The notes below the pieces were generated by a model. That model saw only the letters and a list, made by a program, of their open reading frames with translations. It ran no database searches and had not been told where the DNA came from. The translations under genes were made by a program, and so were the position numbers. From Vulcanimicrobiota bacterium (GTDB lineage: Bacteria > Vulcanimicrobiota > Vulcanimicrobiia > Vulcanimicrobiales > Vulcanimicrobiaceae), in NCBI GenBank assembly GCA_963812155.1, contig CAWETW010000001.1, forward strand, positions 64,001 through 128,000: a DNA stretch of 64,000 nucleotides, read 5' to 3'. Of this stretch, positions 45,423 through 55,348 are shown piece after piece (the first letter of the stretch is position 1; each line of letters opens with the position of its first letter).

Positions 45423-47054
45423 CTAGCGGCTCCACTCCTGGGCGTTCCAGCTCTCGGTGGTGCCGTTCGGGACGAAGTTCCGCAAATCGGCGGCGTGCCC
45501 GTAGCGCAGCGATTGATAGTAGATAAACGCCCCCGGCGCGTCGCGCAGCAGCAGCGACTGAATCGTCGCGTACGCGCGCATACGGACCGCGCGGTCGAAG
45601 GTCGAAAGCGCGAGCCTTTGCGCGGCTTCCATCTCGCGCGAACAATATCGTGAGATATTATTTCCGGCGGGCGGCACGGCCGCACACGTCCATTGCGACG
45701 AGTCGTCGGGGTCGGATCCCGATATCCACGAGTACATGGCGAGGTCGAACTTCCCGCTGTTGAGGATTCCGCCGTTTTGCGCCGCGGCATAGAGCACGGC
45801 ATAGTCGTAACCCTTGAGTTCCAGCTCGACGCCGAGCGCTTTATACATTTGCTGCACCTGCGCCGTGACCGTTCGCACGAGTTGGCTGCCGTTACCGTAC
45901 GCTATTTGCAACGATAGCCGCTTGCCGTCGCGCACCCGCACGCCGTCGGGTCCCGGGTGCCACCCCGCCGCGTCCAGCAGGGCTTTCGCTCGCGTCAGCT
46001 CGTAGGGCACCGGCGCGAGCGACGCATCGAAGGCCCAGTAGAACGGCGAGAGATCCGCCACGGCGAGTTTTCCGGTGCCGTACGTGTCGTCGTGCACGAT
46101 CGCCGCGCGATCCATGCCGAGGACGAGCGCTTGCCGGACGCGGACGTCGTCGAGGGGCGGGCGCACCGTGTTGAAAAGGATCGCCGTATACGCGGGCGCC
46201 TCCGCGAGTTGCCTAACGAGCGCGGTGCCGCGGATAACGTCGCGATAGACGGGAGACGGTATCTCAATCGCAAGATCGACTTCGTGCGAAAGCAGCTGCG
46301 CGAGCGTCGTGTTATCGTCCGGTATGATCTTGATCGTCAGCTGTTTGAAGTGCGGCGCGCCGCGGAAGTAGTTGGGATTGGCACGCATGATGATGCGGTC
46401 GCCGCGTAACCAGCGGACGAACTCAAATGGTCCGGTGCCGATTGGTGCGGCATTGAACGGCACCTGGTTGAGGTTCGGATACTTCGCCAGCAAATGTGCC
46501 GGAAGTATCCGCAGGATGGTGTCGCTCTCGCCGAAGATCGTGTCGATGGCGGGAGCGAAGACGCGCTTCATATGCATGACGACGGTGTAGTCGTCGGGCG
46601 TATCCATCGAGGCGACTTGATCGTAGCCCCTGCGAGAAATGACGTTATTGTTTGAATTGAGGATCTCTCGCCAGGTAAACACCACGTCCTTACTGGTGAA
46701 CGGGGCACCGTCGTGCCACTTGACGCCGTGGCGCAAGTGATACGTGATCGTCAATCCGTTCTTGCTGATGCCTCCGTTTTGCTGCGTCGGGACGATGGTA
46801 GCCAACTCGGGAATTTGATGATGGTGCTGGTCTTGGGTGACCAACAGATCGAACGTCAAGCCGGCGAGAAAATTCTCGATCGCGTTCTGCGGCAGAATCG
46901 GATTGAGTTGCATGGGATTGATGTTGATTGCAATCCGAAGCTCGTCGCTCGACGCGGCGTTCTGCATGCCGCTGCGCGAACACGCGGCGGCCGCCGCGAG
47001 CGCCAACAGCGCGAAAAGACTAAGAAGCTTGCGCAACGCAGCGGAACTTTGCAT
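45423..47054 (-). CDS. Peptide ABC transporter substrate-binding lipoprotein (family 5)
   Basis: AACS lipobox, GVKWHDG, PIGTGPF, DVRVRQAL. Confidence 0.9.
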   Translation of the reverse strand: MQSSAALRKLLSLFALLALAAAAACSRSGMQNAASSDELRIAININPMQLNPILPQNAIENFLAGLTFDLLVTQDQHHHQIPELATIVPTQQNGGISKNGLTITYHLRHGVKWHDGAPFTSKDVVFTWREILNSNNNVISRRGYDQVASMDTPDDYTVVMHMKRVFAPAIDTIFGESDTILRILPAHLLAKYPNLNQVPFNAAPIGTGPFEFVRWLRGDRIIMRANPNYFRGAPHFKQLTIKIIPDDNTTLAQLLSHEVDLAIEIPSPVYRDVIRGTALVRQLAEAPAYTAILFNTVRPPLDDVRVRQALVLGMDRAAIVHDDTYGTGKLAVADLSPFYWAFDASLAPVPYELTRAKALLDAAGWHPGPDGVRVRDGKRLSLQIAYGNGSQLVRTVTAQVQQMYKALGVELELKGYDYAVLYAAAQNGGILNSGKFDLAMYSWISGSDPDDSSQWTCAAVPPAGNNISRYCSREMEAAQRLALSTFDRAVRMRAYATIQSLLLRDAPGAFIYYQSLRYGHAADLRNFVPNGTTESWNAQEWSR

Positions 47055-48288
47055 ACATGTACGGATAATCGCGATAGAACCAGTTGCGAAAACTGCGCCG
47101 CACCAGTTCGACGGCCGTTACCGGCGAGGCGCCTTTCATCACGTAGTGCTTACCGTCGAAAAAGTCGGCGGAATATTGCGGATACGATGCCATCGGCTCG
47201 AAGCCGGGAAACGGCGCGAACGGCGTTTGCGTCCACTCCCAGCCGTTGCCGATGAGGTCGCACACGCCCCAGGCGCTAGCACCGTCGGGATGTGCGTCGA
47301 CCGGCTCGGGGTCGAAACGTTGAAAGCCGAAGTTTCCGTGCCGGCGGCCGGGCGGCTCGTCACCCCACGGATGGGGCCGCTCGCCGGCGCCGGAGCCGAA
47401 GGCGGCACGGTGATACTCGGCCTCGCTGGGAAGCCGCATTCCCGCCCAAGCGGCATACGCTTCGGCCTGCGCGTGCGAAACGTACACCGGCCACGAATGT
47501 GGCAGCGGCAACTCTTCGAAAACTCCGCGCAGCCGCCATTCGCCGTCGTGCCGGATCCAAAACGGCGGCGGCTCGCCCCCCGCATCCACGAACGCGCGCC
47601 AATCGCCGTTGGTTACGGGAAACGTTGCAACGTCGAATGCCGGCACCGCGACTTCGTGGCGTCCGAACTCGTTGTCCCAGCCGAAGGCGAGGTCGGCGGG
47701 ATCGGCCCCCAGCGTTGCAATGCCTGCCGGAATCGAGCGCATGTCGAACGCCGGCGGTGCATGGTCGTCGAAGGTTTGCGCGACGCGGCGCTTCTTATCC
47801 GAATCCAGCCGATGCACGATGTAAGTCAGCGTTTCGTGGTGCATCTGTTCGTGCTCCAGCACGGTATACGCCGCTTGCCCCCGCACCAGGCGCGGTACCG
47901 ACGGGTCCTCGATGCGCGCGTGCGCGATCGCTCGCTCGACCCGCTCGTCGCAGGCGCGACCAAAGGCGGCGATTTCTTCGCGTGACGGCCAGTCGCTGCG
48001 TTGGTGACGCTTGGCGTCGTCGAGCGAGCCGGGATCGATGCCGCGTTCGAAGAGCCGCTCGAGGCGTTCGTCAAGCGGCCGTTCCTTCAAACCGCGCTCG
48101 TTGAGCGTGAAGAAACTGAACGCCGGAATGTGCCCTTCGTAAAACGCAAACGGGTGGCGCAGCGGAATCGGCCCCTCGTAAAACGCTTGGGGCGCGATCA
48201 GGTCGAAAAGCTCGGCCGAACGCGCGCGGTTGCGGCGGTACCAGTCGAGCAAAAAGGCGCGGTCGAGTTTTTCGATCGTTTGTTGCAT
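47020..48288 (-). CDS. EgtB/OvoA-like non-heme iron sulfoxide synthase (DinB_2 plus FGE-sulfatase domains)
   Basis: LRHPFAFYEGH, EHEQMHHE iron motif, FGWDNE, RLPSEAE, GNGWEWT, RRSFRNWF. Confidence 0.82.
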   Translation of the reverse strand: MQQTIEKLDRAFLLDWYRRNRARSAELFDLIAPQAFYEGPIPLRHPFAFYEGHIPAFSFFTLNERGLKERPLDERLERLFERGIDPGSLDDAKRHQRSDWPSREEIAAFGRACDERVERAIAHARIEDPSVPRLVRGQAAYTVLEHEQMHHETLTYIVHRLDSDKKRRVAQTFDDHAPPAFDMRSIPAGIATLGADPADLAFGWDNEFGRHEVAVPAFDVATFPVTNGDWRAFVDAGGEPPPFWIRHDGEWRLRGVFEELPLPHSWPVYVSHAQAEAYAAWAGMRLPSEAEYHRAAFGSGAGERPHPWGDEPPGRRHGNFGFQRFDPEPVDAHPDGASAWGVCDLIGNGWEWTQTPFAPFPGFEPMASYPQYSADFFDGKHYVMKGASPVTAVELVRRSFRNWFYRDYPYMYAKFRCVAQAS

Positions 48289-48314: not shown

Positions 48315-49431
48315 TTACAGCGTTCCGCGCTTCTCCTGTTCGCGCTCGATGGAAACGAAGAGCGCTTTGAAGTTCCCTTTTCCGAACGAGAGACTGCCCT
48401 TGCGCTGAATGATCTCGAAGAACACCGTCGGCCGGTCCTGAAGCGGTTTGGTGAAGATCTGCAGCATGTAGCCCATGTCGTCGCGATCGACGAGAATCCG
48501 CTGTTCGCGCAGCATATCGATCGCCTCGTCGATGCGGCCCACCCGCTGTTCGAGCATTTCGTAATACGAATCCGGCGTGTCGAGAAATTCGACGCCGTTG
48601 GCGCGCAGCGCGCGAATCGTGGCGGCGATGTCGTCGGTGCGGATCGCCATGTGCTGGACGCCGGCGCCGCGATAGAAGTCGAGATATTCCTCGATTTGCG
48701 ATTTCTTCTTACCCTGCGCGGGCTCGTTGATCGGGAACTTCACGCGATGGCGCGCGTCGGTCATCACTTTCGAGCGCAGCGCGGTGTATTCGGTGGAGAT
48801 GTCCTTGTCGTCGAACGACACGAGTTGCGAAAAGCCGAAGACGCGCGCGTAGAAGTCGCCCCACGCGTCCATCTCGCCCCAGCCGACGTTGCCGACGCAG
48901 TGGTCGATGAAGAGCAGATCCGGCTTCACGGCCGCGTCAAGCGTCTTGCGCTGTTCGACGAAGCCGGGCATGAAGCGTCCCGCGATAGTTGCGGCGTTCG
49001 ACGAACGAATGCACGGTGTCGCCGTAGGTGGCGATTTTCGCCTGCAGGATGTGCCCGCTCCCGTCGCGCGACTCGACCGGTTCCTGGACGGCGCGAGCTC
49101 CGCCCGCGATCGCCGTGTCGAACGCGGCGCGCGCGTCTTCGACCACGATGGCAATGTCTTTGATGCCGTCGCCGTGTAGCGCGACGTGCCGCGCGATGTC
49201 GTCGTCGGGCAGCAAGCTGGCGGTAAGGAGGAAGCGCAGCTTATTCTGTTCGAGTAAGTAACTGACGCGATTTTTCACGCCCGTTTCCGGGCCGGCGTAC
49301 GCGATCTGATCGAAACCGAACGCCGACATGTAGTAGTGCGCCGCCTGCTTGGCGTTCCCGACGTAGAACTCGACGTAATCCCAATCGATCTCCGCCAGCG
49401 GATTGCTGCGCGATTCGGTCACCGTACTCAT
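48315..49431 (-). CDS. hppD: 4-hydroxyphenylpyruvate dioxygenase (frameshift near 48985)
   Basis: [28 protein letters not shown] and [19 protein letters not shown] motifs. Confidence 0.95.
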
Positions 49432-49495
49432 GCGCCTGGCCTTGGCGAGGCGCCCGAGGCGCCCCTGTTCGGCTGCGCGAAGAAGCGCGCCACGC

Positions 49496-50449
49496 ATGAA
49501 TTCACGCAGCGAGGCCGCGGCGCGGGCCGCATTCGAGGCACTCATTGACTACGCCGGCCTCTATCCGCCGGCCGAACTCGGCATTGATGCCGCCGTGGCC
49601 GAATACGGCGCGGCCGGCGCGAGCGCGGCGGCGTGGATGCTCGGGCGCTTCATTGCCGGCACGCCGCAAATCGCAGGCGTCGTCTCCGCCTGGAGGGCGC
49701 GCGGTACCGGCGACGCCCTTCGGCTTTCGGTCATCGCCGCGGTGGAACGCGATGCGCGACGCTGGTTCGACTCGCTGCGCGGCGCGCTCGATGCGATCGT
49801 GACGTTGCGAACCGAGCCGGGCGTCGTGGTGGAAGCGCTCGAGATTCCGCTCGCGGCGCCGGTCAGCACGCGTGAGACCTTCGAAGCGCCGATCGCGCAG
49901 TTGCGGGCGGCCCTGGATCGCGCGAATCTCGGCGACCTCCCGGTCTACGTCGAACTTCCGGAGCATTCGCGCCGCGAGGAACTCCTGCCGCAGGCGATGG
50001 CGGCGCTTGCACGGGTGCACTTGCGTGCCAAGCTTCGCTGCGGCGGCATCGTCGCGGAAGCGTTTCCGAGCGTCGACGCGGTTGCCGGATTCATCGCGAC
50101 GGCGGCGGCCGAGCGCGTCGCGTTCAAAGCGACGGCGGGGCTGCACCATCCCGTGCGCCATCTCAATGCCGCGACGGGCTTCGTGATGCACGGGTTTCTG
50201 AATCTGCTGGCCGCCGCAACGTTTGCGCCGGCGTCGAGTGCCGACGAACTGCGGCTCATCGTTGCCGAAGAAGATCCGCGGGCCTTTGCCATCGGCGAAT
50301 CCGGCTTTGCATGGCGAGACCGGCGCGCGGGCCTCGACGAACTCCGGCGCGCGCGCGCGCAGGCGTTCGTGGGATACGGAAGTTGCAGTTTCAGCGAGCC
50401 GGTCGACGATTTGACGGCACTGGGCATGCTGCCGGCCGCACTCGCGTGA
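49496..50449 (+). CDS. Conserved hypothetical protein coupled to fahA
   Basis: LIDYAGLYPPA, AKLRCGG, FKATAGLHHP, MHGFLN and GSCSFSEP motifs; GTGA overlap with fahA. Confidence 0.75.
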   Translation: MNSRSEAAARAAFEALIDYAGLYPPAELGIDAAVAEYGAAGASAAAWMLGRFIAGTPQIAGVVSAWRARGTGDALRLSVIAAVERDARRWFDSLRGALDAIVTLRTEPGVVVEALEIPLAAPVSTRETFEAPIAQLRAALDRANLGDLPVYVELPEHSRREELLPQAMAALARVHLRAKLRCGGIVAEAFPSVDAVAGFIATAAAERVAFKATAGLHHPVRHLNAATGFVMHGFLNLLAAATFAPASSADELRLIVAEEDPRAFAIGESGFAWRDRRAGLDELRRARAQAFVGYGSCSFSEPVDDLTALGMLPAALA

Positions 50450-51744
50450 TCGACGCACGCGAAACGACGTCGCCCGAGCTGGAGTCGTGGCTCGACGTCG
50501 AGCCCGGCAGCGACTTTCCGATTCAAAACCTGCCGTTCGGCATTTTCGTCCGCGACCGCGAGACGACCGGGCGCATCGGCGTCGCGATCGGCGACCGCAT
50601 CCTCGATCTGCGCGCGGTAGCGGAGAGCGGCTTGCTCGACGAGGCGTGCGAACGGCGCCTGCTCGAGCGGCAGCGTCTCAACGCGCTGTTCGCGCGCGGC
50701 CGGGAAACGTTGAGCGCGCTGCGCCGCCGCATTTCAATGCTGTTGCGCCGCGACGGCGACCCCGCGCTGCGTCTCGCCAACGCCGATTTCTTTTTCGTGC
50801 CGCGCGACGGGACGCGCATGCTGATGCCGGTCGAAGTGGGCGATTACGTCGACTTCTACTCGTCGCTCGAACATGCGACCAACCTCGGACGGCTGTTCCG
50901 GCCCGACGCCGAGCCGCTGCTGCCGAACTGGCGCTGGATGCCGATCGGCTACCATGGCCGTTCGGCGACGATCGTCGCCGGCGGCACGCCGATCGTGCGG
51001 CCTTCCGGACAGCGCAAGCCGAAGGACGCATCCGTGCCGGTCTTCGGCGCATCGACGATGCTCGACATCGAACTCGAAGTCGGCTTCATCGTCGGCCGCG
51101 GCAATGCGCTCGGTATGCCGATCCCGGTCGATGCGGCACTCGACCACGTGGCCGGATTCGTGCTCGTGAACGACTGGAGCGCGCGCGACATTCAGGCGTG
51201 GGAATATCAGCCGCTCGGGCCGTTCCTGGGCAAATCGTTCGCGACGACGATCTCGCCCTGGGTGGTCACCCTCGACGCGCTCGAGCCGTTTCGCGTCGCA
51301 AGCCCCGCGCAACAGCCGCCGCCGCTGCCGTATCTTCGCGCCGAGCAGCCGGGAGGGTACGACATACAATTAGCGGTCGACTTGCAAACCGCGCGCATGC
51401 GCGAAGCGGGAATCGCCGCACACACGATCTCGCGCACGAACTTCAGCGGCATGTACTGGAACCCAGCGCAGCAGCTCGCGCACGCAACCGTGAACGGAGC
51501 CCGCACGCGCGCCGGCGACCTCTTCGCTTCGGGCACGATCTCAGGCCCAACGCCCGAGAGTTACGGGAGCCTCATCGAACTGACGTGGCGCGGCGAGCGG
51601 CCCATCGAACTCCCCGACGGCGAGCGGCGCGCGTTTCTGAGCGATGGCGACGAAATTACTTTGCGAGGCTGGTGCGAAAAACGCGGCGCGCGGCGCATTG
51701 GATTCGGCGCCGCGCGCGGACGTATCGAGCCTACGATAGGCTAA
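50446..51744 (+). CDS. fahA: Fumarylacetoacetase
   Basis: DFPIQNLPFG, DFYSSLEHATN, DIELE, NDWSARDIQAWEY and SGTISG motifs. Confidence 0.96.
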   Translation: MIDARETTSPELESWLDVEPGSDFPIQNLPFGIFVRDRETTGRIGVAIGDRILDLRAVAESGLLDEACERRLLERQRLNALFARGRETLSALRRRISMLLRRDGDPALRLANADFFFVPRDGTRMLMPVEVGDYVDFYSSLEHATNLGRLFRPDAEPLLPNWRWMPIGYHGRSATIVAGGTPIVRPSGQRKPKDASVPVFGASTMLDIELEVGFIVGRGNALGMPIPVDAALDHVAGFVLVNDWSARDIQAWEYQPLGPFLGKSFATTISPWVVTLDALEPFRVASPAQQPPPLPYLRAEQPGGYDIQLAVDLQTARMREAGIAAHTISRTNFSGMYWNPAQQLAHATVNGARTRAGDLFASGTISGPTPESYGSLIELTWRGERPIELPDGERRAFLSDGDEITLRGWCEKRGARRIGFGAARGRIEPTIG

Positions 51745-51857: not shown

Positions 51858-52820
51858 CTAAGGCTTGCTGACGAGTGCGTCCCACGGCATGTTGAGGCCG
51901 GTCGTTATCGTATTGACCGCCGTTCCACCGTGCGGATACTTGAAGACCAGAACCTGGTTTGCGAACGCATCGGCGACGATGACGCGCTTGGCCGATGGAA
52001 CGGTAAAACCGTTCGACGACGAACCCGGCATGCTGACGTTCACGATGTGTGAAACCAAGTTCGGCGTCGCTGCCGGTATCTGATAGATGCTCGTTGCGAA
52101 GTCCCCGATATCGATGAAGTTGTTGAACGGGTCGTAGTACATCGGTCCTGCCGAGCCCGGCGTTCCGCCCTGCAGCGCGATCTGCTGGAACGTGCTCTCC
52201 GGGGCGTCGAGCTTGGCGTAGTAGAACGTATCGCTGGCGCTCGAGTACCCGTTGACGTAAAGATTGTTCAGCGAGTCGTACGCGACACCGCTAAGGAGCG
52301 AGGCATTGCGATCGTAATAGATGTGCGGCGTCCCCGTGGCGTGATGATACACGGCAACGTAGCCGATATGTTCGCTGGAATTTTCGATGTTGCCCACGAC
52401 GGCGAGATCCTTCGTTTGCTTGTCGTACGCGCATTGATACGGCAGCGTCAGGCCCGTGAGCGTGTAGTTTGGTGACGTCGCGGCGTGGTTGTAGTTTGCG
52501 ACCTGCCCCGTGGCGTAGTCGACGACGAAGACGCTGTTGTTCTTGCCGAGGCACATGAAGAGCGGCTCGGTGAAGCCAGTGATTTGACCGACGTAGGCGA
52601 GGGATGGGTAGAGGTACGTCTTGACGGTGCCGGATCCGGAATCCGTGACGTAGAGTAACGGCTGCGAAGCGACGTCCGGCTTCATACTCGCCGCGCTCTG
52701 TTGGAATTGGGGCGCGGCCGGCAGTGCAGCCTGCCCACCCGACGTATTCGAAATGCCGCTTCCGCAGCCGGAAAGGACGAACGCCGACAGAACCGCCGAC
52801 GCATAAAGGGCGTGACGCAT
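51858..52820 (-). CDS. Secreted beta-propeller lipoprotein
   Basis: LSGC lipobox; LLYVTD and NHL-like blades; RBS GAGGAG. Confidence 0.7.
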   Translation of the reverse strand: MRHALYASAVLSAFVLSGCGSGISNTSGGQAALPAAPQFQQSAASMKPDVASQPLLYVTDSGSGTVKTYLYPSLAYVGQITGFTEPLFMCLGKNNSVFVVDYATGQVANYNHAATSPNYTLTGLTLPYQCAYDKQTKDLAVVGNIENSSEHIGYVAVYHHATGTPHIYYDRNASLLSGVAYDSLNNLYVNGYSSASDTFYYAKLDAPESTFQQIALQGGTPGSAGPMYYDPFNNFIDIGDFATSIYQIPAATPNLVSHIVNVSMPGSSSNGFTVPSAKRVIVADAFANQVLVFKYPHGGTAVNTITTGLNMPWDALVSKP

Positions 52821-52917: not shown

Positions 52918-54081
52918 CTAAGCCGGCGCTTGGATCCAGGAGCGGAAGTACTGCGGGTCTTCGCACGTCAGCGCGGATTCCGCCAGCATCAACGGCCGGA
53001 ACGTGTCGACCATGATCGCAATTTCGTCCGTCGAGGTCTTCCCAAGGCTCGCCTCCACGGCGCCGGGTTGCGGGCCATGCGGCGCACCGGCCGCGTGCAG
53101 CGTGATCGATCCCTCCTCGACGCCGCGCCGGCTCATGAAGTTTCCGCTCACGTAGTACAGCACTTCGTCGCAGTCGACGCTGGAGTGATTGTACGGCACC
53201 GGAATTGCCAACGGATGATAGTCGAACATCCGCGGCACGAACGCGCAGAAGGCCGCACCCGGCGCTTCGAACGTCGCGTGGGCGGGCGGGGGCTGGTGCA
53301 GTTTTCCGGTGATCGGCGCGAACTCGTCGAGATTGAACGCGTATGGATAGCAGTAGCCGTCCCATCCCACGACGTCGCACGGATGGTTTTGCACGACGTA
53401 GATCGCGTTACGGTCGCCGTTGGTAACGCGCACTTCGTACTCGCCCTGTTCGCTCGCGGGCGCTTTCAAGACGGGCGCGCGAAAGTCTCGCTCGTAGTAG
53501 GGCGCCTGTTCCTCCAGCTGCCCGAAGTCGTTGCGGTACCGGCGCGGAATTTTTACGCTCCCGGCGCATTCGTGGACGAGCATCCGTGTGGGCGCCGACG
53601 GAATCACGCGATAGGTCGTGCCGGTTGGAACGATCACGTAGTCGTTTTCGCGATATGCCAGTTCGCCGAACTGCGTCTCGAGGACGCCGCTGCCGTGATG
53701 AATGAAGAGCAGCTCGTCGCCGCCGGTGTTCCGGTAAAAATACTCCATCGGGCGATCGGCTTGCGCGACGCTCACCGTGATGTCGCCGTTGCCGAGCAGC
53801 GGCCGGCGCGATTCGATCGCGTCGCCGCCGTTCCCGTCGAGCAACGCCGTTTTGAAATGGCGGTTGCGCAGCGGCTCGTTCGACGTCCACTGCGTCGCCG
53901 GACGATCCCACGCGCGAACGTCGAGCGTCGCGGTGGGTGGGCGCAGGTGATAGAGCAGCGAGTAGACGCTCTCGAAACCTTTGGTCGAGAGCAGTTCCTC
54001 GGCGTACAGGCCGCCGTCGGGACGCCGAAATTGAATGTGTCGCTTGTGCGGGATCGAGCCCTCGCGTACGTAGGACGGCAT
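52918..54081 (-). CDS. hmgA: Homogentisate 1,2-dioxygenase
   Basis: PHKRH, RNTGGDEL, DVVGWDG, HQPPP, PYNH, DEVLYY and LH..G.PHGP motifs. Confidence 0.93.
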   Translation of the reverse strand: MPSYVREGSIPHKRHIQFRRPDGGLYAEELLSTKGFESVYSLLYHLRPPTATLDVRAWDRPATQWTSNEPLRNRHFKTALLDGNGGDAIESRRPLLGNGDITVSVAQADRPMEYFYRNTGGDELLFIHHGSGVLETQFGELAYRENDYVIVPTGTTYRVIPSAPTRMLVHECAGSVKIPRRYRNDFGQLEEQAPYYERDFRAPVLKAPASEQGEYEVRVTNGDRNAIYVVQNHPCDVVGWDGYCYPYAFNLDEFAPITGKLHQPPPAHATFEAPGAAFCAFVPRMFDYHPLAIPVPYNHSSVDCDEVLYYVSGNFMSRRGVEEGSITLHAAGAPHGPQPGAVEASLGKTSTDEIAIMVDTFRPLMLAESALTCEDPQYFRSWIQAPA

Positions 54082-54349: not shown

Positions 54350-55348
54350 ATGAAGTGGACGCTCGTGGCTTTAGGGATGCTCGCGGCCGTTGCTTTTCTG
54401 GCGCCCGCCGCGCACTGGGGTTCGTCGCCGGTTGCGGCAGCGACCGCGACGCCGGCGGCGCTGCAATACGACGAGATTTCGCGCCCGCTGGTGCCGCCGA
54501 ATACGCCGCCGCCGCCCGGGAATTTTGCCGCCGATTACCAGGCGGCCGCGACGGCCCAAACCCCGAAACCGCATGGATTCAATCCGTTCACCGCGATGCA
54601 CGACGCACAAGAGATGATGAAGGCGGTGAGTGCCGGCCGCGTGACGCGTTACGCATTCTACAACGGATGGATTCGGCGCGATGACGTGAACGCGCAGACC
54701 GCGACGATCGAGAAGTGCGATCGTCACCAGTACATTACGCTCGATCTCGCTAAGAGAACCTACAGCATCTCGACGCAGACCCCGCCTTGTCCGACGCCGG
54801 CGCAGTATCCCGGCGCACCGCCGACCCAAGGTGGAGGCGGAGCCGGCACGGTCGACATCACGATGAAGCTGACCACGAACAGCTTAGGGCCGATGACGAT
54901 CGAGGGCCTCGATACGACCGGCCTCGACCGTGCAATCGAACTGAAGATGTCGAACGCAACCGGATCGTGCCGCAGCGGCATGAACGGCATGGACGTCGTC
55001 ATGAACTCGCGCTCGTACGTTTCGCAGGTTGCGGTGCCGCGCAGATTCTGCCCGCTGCCGCAAAGCACGTCGCTGACCGATATGTTTACCCGCTACGGGA
55101 TGGGGAACGGGTGCAAACCAAGTTTCCATTCCGAACAAGGGGGCGACGCCGCTGCGCCTCTGATGGGATTGGATTCGGGCGGAAAGACGCTCGTTTTGTA
55201 CTCGAGTTCGACGCTCGGCGTGCCGAACGCGCCCAAACAGGCCGGCGGGTTTGGGATGCTGCTCGAACGCGGAAACGTCAAGTGGCTTACCGGCGCGCAG
55301 GCGCAGGCGCTGTTCGAAATACCGGCCGGATTTACGCAGGAGGGGTAA
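54350..55348 (+). CDS. Secreted hypothetical protein
   Basis: Signal peptide; C-terminal LFEIPAGF; several Cys. Confidence 0.65.
   Translation: MKWTLVALGMLAAVAFLAPAAHWGSSPVAAATATPAALQYDEISRPLVPPNTPPPPGNFAADYQAAATAQTPKPHGFNPFTAMHDAQEMMKAVSAGRVTRYAFYNGWIRRDDVNAQTATIEKCDRHQYITLDLAKRTYSISTQTPPCPTPAQYPGAPPTQGGGGAGTVDITMKLTTNSLGPMTIEGLDTTGLDRAIELKMSNATGSCRSGMNGMDVVMNSRSYVSQVAVPRRFCPLPQSTSLTDMFTRYGMGNGCKPSFHSEQGGDAAAPLMGLDSGGKTLVLYSSSTLGVPNAPKQAGGFGMLLERGNVKWLTGAQAQALFEIPAGFTQEG

Follow-up and report, generated by a model that had tools for sequence, protein, structure and literature searches.

How the breakdown of tyrosine and phenylalanine via homogentisate is completed where the glutathione-dependent isomerase is lacking is the question raised by a gene cluster of a Vulcanimicrobiota bacterium (NCBI GenBank assembly GCA_963812155.1, contig CAWETW010000001.1, positions 64,001 to 128,000). 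This stretch of 64,000 nucleotides is referred to as the window, and all coordinates are positions within it. The pathway requires an isomerase between HmgA and FahA and, to our knowledge, the sole well-known maleylacetoacetate isomerase needs glutathione, which is not made by most bacterial phyla and archaea. The cluster codes for a protein of 317 amino acids (aa) at 49496..50449 (+ strand, ATG at 49496, TGA at 50447-50449), here called the candidate, which a first-pass annotation had proposed to be a new isomerase. We consider it fairly probable that the candidate isomerises maleylacetoacetate from cis to trans without glutathione (EC 5.2.1.2) and replaces MaiA where this enzyme is lacking. 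It would thus work beside FahA in homogentisate breakdown, in lineages without the glutathione-dependent isomerase.

The candidate gene is located directly upstream of fahA (fumarylacetoacetase; 50446..51744, + strand), which is assigned by TIGR01266 (517.5 bits; cut-off 375.3) and by the Pfam domains FAA_hydrolase_N and FAA_hydrolase. The likely start codon of fahA is the GTG at 50446, which fits the N-terminus of FahA and overlaps the TGA of the candidate as GTGA. This stop/start overlap suggests translational coupling of the two genes, and from their arrangement the candidate is predicted to be co-transcribed with fahA. The unassigned gene had been described as coupled to fahA from the beginning, and its position, its strand and the overlap agree with this. 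It had also been stated that neither a MaiA of the glutathione S-transferase (GST) type nor a mycothiol-type isomerase is encoded in the cluster. This can be extended to the whole source genome, which has a size of 2.96 Mb in 5 contigs and a completeness of 83.85%, and which is placed in Eremiobacterota by the names of its close matches; in this genome, no match was obtained for GST_N (PF02798), for MDMPI_N (PF11716, the only model by which DinB-type isomerases were probed) or for the maiA model TIGR01262.

The motifs DYAGLYPP, KLRCGG, KATAGLHH, HGFLN and GSCSFSEP, which had been quoted as enzyme-like, are all found in the translation of this open reading frame (ORF). A word-indexed search with 8000 scored sequences resulted in 5181 homologues at E<=0.001, and an exhaustive HMMER search assigned 4353 representative clusters (50% identity) to the family, 1019 of them at E<=1e-30. 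Because of the many homologues and the high confidence of the AlphaFold2 model described below, we regard the ORF as a real protein. No model from Pfam-A or NCBIfam matched the candidate at E<=0.01. A sequence-profile search of the PDB had a best E-value of 0.056 for an unrelated protein, with no aldolase among the matches, and a search of the ESM Atlas returned only nameless "hypothetical protein" clusters and no usable named one. All named members are labelled "hypothetical" or "uncharacterized", including the RefSeq entries from Bacillus sp. J33 and Chlorogloeopsis fritschii. We found no paper on the family in the literature covered, which excludes subscription journals, so that an earlier description may exist elsewhere. 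By homology, the candidate is a member of a large, widespread and previously unannotated enzyme family.

If the candidate acts between HmgA and FahA, its gene would be expected to keep this company in other organisms. One genome per prokaryotic species was scanned and the best 80 of 580 confirmed stretches were examined, the neighbours being found by tblastn with the proteins of the window. In 71 of these 80 loci, a fahA gene of the same orientation follows the candidate, with no more than 150 nt between the aligned ends in 66 cases. About 16 lineage labels occur among the loci, including Eremiobacterota, Acidobacteriota, Chloroflexota, Planctomycetota, Verrucomicrobiota, Cyanobacteria, Bacillus sp. 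J33 and archaea of the Poseidoniia. Within 8 kb of the candidate, hmgA is present in 41 and hppD in 35 loci, while hmgA is directly upstream of the candidate in 13. In L028 (Krumholzibacteriia), L030 (Chloroflexi) and L034 (a Poseidoniia archaeon), the genes are arranged as the reactions follow each other, namely hppD-hmgA-candidate-fahA.

A search for longer proteins yielded five matches, three of which contain FAA_hydrolase domains. Protein P0292 (771 aa, encoded on a 248-kb contig) consists of a whole candidate (residues 5-310) and a whole FahA (340-761), the latter being 52% identical to the FahA of the window. It represents a single-member cluster and may be an assembly artefact. The other two proteins in which the candidate is joined to FahA, P0294 (1033 aa) and P0295 (558 aa), are single-member clusters as well, and P0294 additionally has glyoxalase (HppD-like) domains. 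All three may be true fusions or may be due to read-through in gene calling.

Adjacency and fusion to FahA would suit any neighbouring step equally. The candidate might thus act in some other way on the substrate or the products of FahA, be it as a keto-enol tautomerase of maleyl- or fumarylacetoacetate, as a Schiff-base decarboxylase or aldolase on a beta-keto acid, or in acetoacetate processing. We consider this unlikely, even if it is the most serious of the alternatives. The canonical pathway requires no such additional step, and the placement of the gene between hmgA and fahA in operons also speaks against it.

In nine of the 80 loci, fahA does not adjoin the candidate. In two of these the sequence stops shortly behind the gene, with 122 and 827 bases remaining, and in a third one 1349 bases remain. 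In seven loci the candidate is away from fahA although the contigs reach well beyond it, and this would be compatible with a hitch-hiker unrelated to tyrosine breakdown, or with a non-catalytic partner of FahA such as a stabilising or regulatory subunit. The genomes of seven of the nine loci (all except L037 and L047) were searched, and fahA was found elsewhere in six, in two of them in pieces, while it was not found in genome G173. At the seven loci, which were examined for a link of the candidate to the gentisate pathway, neither a gentisate dioxygenase nor any other common context was found. As a hitch-hiker would not be expected to follow fahA so closely from genome to genome, especially in Bacillales where the same seven genomes are concerned, and as invariant charged and polar residues are positioned like an active site at the C-terminal ends of the predicted barrel strands, we regard a non-catalytic or unrelated protein as very improbable.

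The phyletic distribution was analysed in samples of 151 genomes each from Eremiobacterota, Bacillales, Planctomycetota and Acidobacteriota (604 in total), which were cross-tabulated by hand. Each sample is centred on a known carrier of the candidate, and its genomes are related to each other rather than independent. Among 108 carriers of the candidate, 106 also have fahA. In Eremiobacterota, the candidate occurs in 74 genomes and fahA in 78 over cut-off plus 2 where it is split across contigs; all 74 carriers have both genes, with fahA matches at E<=4.4e-90. The six Eremiobacterota with fahA but without the candidate are G018, G039, G045, G126, G130 and G090. In Bacillales, candidate and fahA occur, adjoining each other, in the identical seven genomes (7 candidate, 7 fahA, 7 both), while the other 144 have neither. 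Seven Planctomycetota have the candidate and seven have fahA, six having both; the exceptions are G508 with only fahA and G173 with only the candidate. In Acidobacteriota, 20 genomes have the candidate, 22 have fahA and 19 have both, with G701, G736 and G759 carrying only fahA and G712 only the candidate. As to hmgA, 44 out of 50 diverse carriers have a protein which exceeds the cut-off for HgmA_N; 11 of these proteins are of the canonical type and 33 of the short type that is also encoded in the window. The presence of the family together with fahA and hmgA, which had been named as a check for the proposed function, is thus largely borne out. In a sample of Cyanobacteria, which was searched for fahA only, this gene is present in 1 of 151 genomes, namely the centre genome.

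Some observations were made on individual genomes of these samples. Eight genomes from one genus of Eremiobacterota (G048, G052, G060, G068, G080, G094, G096, G102) carry an FAH-like gene with 328-355 bits, which is just under the TIGR01266 cut-off, and do not carry the candidate. In the neighbourhoods from G052, G060 and G094, this gene is not part of an hmg cluster and the candidate does not adjoin it. These proteins may represent a hydrolase of different specificity. Locus L053, from genome G173, is labelled "uncultured Alcaligenaceae", yet the phylum sample centred on this genome includes the planctomycete G184 (L066), and the contig carries a DUF1571 gene, so that label and placement are in conflict.

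If the candidate replaces MaiA, the two enzymes should exclude each other. TIGR01262 was over its cut-off in none of the 151 Eremiobacterota, in none of 50 diverse carriers (where 46 even lack any GST-zeta-like match), in none of four planctomycete carriers and in none of two acidobacterial carriers. The genome of G508, a planctomycete with fahA but without the candidate, codes for a MaiA (217 bits; cut-off 171), and this is the pattern which is expected if either enzyme replaces the other. Thus, the family occurs together with hmgA and fahA and, judging from this distribution, would stand in for the other isomerase types. The expectation that it is anti-correlated with maiA holds insofar as none of the tested carriers has a true maiA, while positive replacement is seen in G508 alone. 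An additional step around FahA would be expected also in lineages with maiA, and therefore the lack of maiA in all tested carriers and the lack of the candidate in G508, the sole planctomycete with both fahA and maiA, speak against a reaction other than the isomerisation.

An AlphaFold2 model of the candidate, built from an alignment of 40 sequences, has a mean predicted local distance difference test score (pLDDT) of 96.2 and a predicted template modelling score (pTM) of 0.93. According to DSSP, eight barrel strands alternate with helices, and a small beta-meander is present at residues 264-278. The model is thus a (beta/alpha)8 barrel, and its closest structural match is deoxyribose-phosphate aldolase (DERA/DeoC), a class I aldolase. 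In an all-against-all structural search, six DERA chains are on top, the first five with VIA Z scores of 15.3-16.2 and the sixth with 13.4, and the top five alignments cover 215-238 residues with a root mean square deviation of 3.1-3.8. The best fold other than DERA is pyruvate kinase (Z 13.3). Barrels dependent on flavin mononucleotide (FMN) or on metals had been considered as the nearest fold and were rejected, as their Z scores (11-13) are below those of DERA. Foldseek also places DERA first (3ng3, E-value 8.7e-5).

Conservation was analysed in an alignment of 134 sequences, consisting of the query, three named proteins and 130 of the 149 representatives P0121-P0269, the remaining 19 being excluded because their length is outside 285-350 aa. 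Ten residues are invariant in all 134 sequences (P24, P25, E153, R181, P191, K211, T213, G215, H217 and R287). K179, C297, E116 and N236 are kept in 133, D18 and H218 in 132, and H232 in 131 of them. In the order of strands in the model, D18 is located on strand 1, E116 on strand 4, E153 on strand 5, K179 and R181 on strand 6, K211 on strand 7 and C297 on strand 8. In the predicted structure, the conserved charged and polar residues are at the C-terminal ends of the strands, which is the typical location of the active site in TIM barrels. The family has only one conserved cysteine, C297, which is the cysteine of the GSCS motif to which the first-pass annotation had drawn attention.

The resemblance to DERA concerns the predicted fold and may extend to the placement of some residues. 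We take the DERA residues at matching places to be D102, K167 and K201, and the lysines on strands 6 and 7 would be equally spaced in the candidate. However, sequence identity is only 10-17%, the candidate has additional conserved His, Arg and Cys residues as well as the beta-meander insert at 264-278, and its gene context is aromatic rather than nucleoside catabolism. The candidate is not a DeoC by sequence, as there is no match to DeoC or TIGR00126 in Pfam or NCBIfam. DeoC sequences from four genomes carry the lysine motifs KTSTG and K.SGG. When the alignment of 40 candidate sequences was compared by hhalign with an alignment of three DeoC sequences, the result was not significant (probability 0.5%, E-value 0.11). 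The sole local alignment, itself non-significant, places K179 at the lysine of KTSTG and K211 at the lysine of K.SGG. The candidate, as modelled, thus has a DERA-like fold in which two lysines and an acid may be placed as in DERA, and it is not a member of the DERA sequence family.

With these residues, a mechanism for the isomerisation can be envisaged. HmgA would open homogentisate to maleylacetoacetate, the candidate would turn the cis double bond into trans, resulting in fumarylacetoacetate, and FahA would cleave the latter to fumarate and acetoacetate. The substrate being a dicarboxylic enone, its two carboxylates may be held by the conserved residues R51, R181, R221 and R287. E116 (strand 4), K179 (strand 6) and K211 (strand 7) would be placed like the acid and the lysines of DERA, with C297 on strand 8. 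A lysine may activate the C4 carbonyl as an iminium, or may merely polarise it. A nucleophile of the enzyme, C297 or a lysine, would then add at C2, taking the part which glutathione plays in MaiA, whereupon the C2-C3 bond would rotate and the nucleophile would leave. This lysine/cysteine mechanism, which we infer from the model, is weaker than the assignment to the pathway. The most specific version, a cofactor-free C=C isomerase on a DERA-like barrel which combines a lysine iminium with Michael addition by Cys297, and which would provide the main tyrosine route of marine group II archaea and of bacteria that lack glutathione, is put forward only tentatively. Both fold and mechanism would then be new for the isomerisation of maleylacetoacetate.

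All maleyl-substrate isomerases known to us use a thiol, and therefore the candidate might also be an isomerase which needs a diffusible thiol such as cysteine, bacillithiol, ergothioneine or ovothiol. This alternative differs from an enzyme with its own nucleophile in mechanism only, and the likelihoods which we assign to the two overlap. A gene related to EgtB and OvoA is found two genes away in the window, coding for an EgtB/OvoA/SenA-like sulfoxide synthase (47020..48288, - strand) with FGE-sulfatase and DinB_2 domains. No NCBIfam equivalog cut-off is reached by this protein (237 bits for OvoA, 200 for EgtB and 188 for SenA, against cut-offs of 400, 360 and 420). It is syntenic in only 16 of the 80 candidate loci, all of a close Eremiobacterota type. 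The suggestion in the first-pass annotation that this neighbour supplies a thiol has thus found no support, and the sulfoxide synthase was rejected as a functional partner, its synteny being confined to one lineage. Moreover, the carriers differ in their thiol chemistry (Bacillales, Cyanobacteria, archaea and Acidobacteriota), and the enzyme's own cysteine is conserved in nearly all members. A requirement for a diffusible thiol seems to us rather improbable.

Several points weigh against the assignment as maleylacetoacetate isomerase. We know of no TIM barrel which is a C=C cis-trans isomerase, and of no maleylacetoacetate isomerase which uses Schiff-base chemistry. The DERA-like lysine pair, if correctly placed by the model, points to the chemistry of Schiff-base aldolases or decarboxylases; a DERA-like fold with lysines on strands 6 and 7 has the hallmarks of Schiff-base C-C chemistry and speaks in favour of another reaction around FahA. 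The profile comparison with DeoC is insignificant (0.5%). The positive complementarity with maiA rests on a single genome, and the Pseudomonadota, in which maiA is common, are outside of the samples. As most carrier lineages are without any GSTs, the absence of maiA is partly a property of the lineage. The genomes being kin and the samples being centred on known carriers, the counts are not independent. Two carriers, G173 and G712, are without detected fahA, both of them being metagenome bins.

A further point is that both the candidate and maiA are missing from nine genomes which score strongly for fahA (G018, G039, G045, G126, G130, G090, G701, G736 and G759). In G045, G126 and G130, the absence of the candidate is real as the assemblies consist of only 1 or 2 contigs. 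No substitute isomerase was found in the neighbourhood of fahA in genomes without the candidate, where an Rv2179c-like exoribonuclease, SpoIIE, a Phe hydroxylase and similar proteins are encoded, and MDMPI_N was found in one of five such genomes with a marginal score of 23.9 bits. Thus, either the isomerase step is dispensable or a third solution exists. That nine genomes manage without both enzymes would equally fit a protein with another function near FahA. The initial proposal of a new isomerase is partly upheld, in that it agrees with the gene order, the fused proteins, the co-occurrence with fahA and hmgA and the lack of maiA in the tested carriers; these nine genomes speak against it. 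As to the exoribonuclease, the Rv2179c-like 3'-5' enzyme is encoded between hppD and fahA in L088 (5501-6580, - strand) and L089 (5345-5956, - strand), which are from G045 and G126.

A comparison with characterized isomerases shows in which respects the candidate would be new. MaiA/GSTZ1 (HmgC) has the thioredoxin-like fold of GSTs and uses glutathione as nucleophile. It shares with the candidate the proposed reaction, the position between HmgA and FahA and the frequent clustering with fahA. However, the candidate is a predicted TIM barrel, it occurs in genomes without maiA, and it is not a GST-zeta MaiA, as neither GST_N, GST_C nor any other GST model, including TIGR01262, matches it. The mycothiol-dependent maleylpyruvate isomerase (MDMPI) from Corynebacterium glutamicum and the L-cysteine-dependent BagL have a DinB four-helix fold, act on a substrate of the gentisate pathway and use an external thiol. 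They are glutathione-independent maleyl cis-trans isomerases of hosts without glutathione, as is proposed for the candidate. In contrast to these, the candidate has no MDMPI_N or DinB domain in the Pfam search and is thus not of the DinB type.

The nearest precedent for the proposed chemistry is maleate cis-trans isomerase, which is cofactor-free and uses its own cysteine as Michael nucleophile on the maleyl double bond. This enzyme belongs to the Asp/Glu racemase superfamily, so that its fold is unrelated and its substrate is another one, and no such Pfam match was obtained for the candidate. The Asp/Glu racemase fold has two catalytic cysteines while only one is conserved in the candidate.

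An unannotated protein within a tyrosine-degradation cluster has been described before, namely HmgX from Aspergillus fumigatus, which is required for the pathway (PMC3203155). The transcript of HmgX measures 771 bp, and the protein, which is confined to ascomycetes, is required for the HppD step; its gene forms a pair with hppD in a cluster that also contains maiA (PMC3203155). The partner of the candidate is fahA, and maiA is lacking where the candidate was found. By this description, HmgX was set aside as a counterpart because of its length, its taxon range and its partner gene.

The remaining genes of the cluster can be described briefly. Divergent from the candidate, on the - strand, is hppD (4-hydroxyphenylpyruvate dioxygenase; 48315-49431), which is in two pieces, both of which match the Pfam domains Glyoxalase_5 and Glyoxalase. 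A frame switch occurs near 48973-48982, at YRG|FMPGF, as identified by tblastn with the HppD of a relative. The gene is unbroken in all three genomes from the same genus, and the frame break could be an assembly indel or could indicate a very recent pseudogene. The completeness of the source genome, 83.85%, compares with 93-95% in its relatives. The intergenic region of 64 bp between the divergent hppD and candidate genes (49432..49495), which was read from the sequence, is presumably a promoter region common to both.

Downstream of fahA, a gene for an NHL-repeat lipoprotein (51858-52820, - strand) is located between fahA and hmgA; it is present in only one of the 80 related loci. It is followed by the gene for a short HmgA-like protein, related to homogentisate 1,2-dioxygenase (52918-54081, - strand, 387 aa). 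This protein matches HgmA_N with 46.4 bits (cut-off 20.2), while it reaches only 67.8 bits with TIGR01015, far under the cut-off of 510.75, and has no HgmA_C match. It is presumed to be the source of maleylacetoacetate, and this short type may form a distinct subfamily of homogentisate dioxygenases. The ORF after hmgA (54350-55348, + strand, 332 aa) is not matched by any Pfam model, and its product has a stretch of hydrophobic residues at the N-terminus.

In summary, comparative genomics agrees well with the assignment, and the candidate is probably a new enzyme, not homologous to the known ones, for an activity that is already known. If this is true, it would close a pathway gap in the metabolic reconstructions of Acidobacteriota, Eremiobacterota, Chloroflexota, Planctomycetota, Verrucomicrobiota, some Bacillales and the marine Poseidoniia. 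The function of a family which comprises at least 4353 sequence clusters, and which is represented neither in Pfam nor in NCBIfam, would be assigned, and the candidate would provide a non-homologous enzyme, probably with new chemistry, for a textbook reaction.

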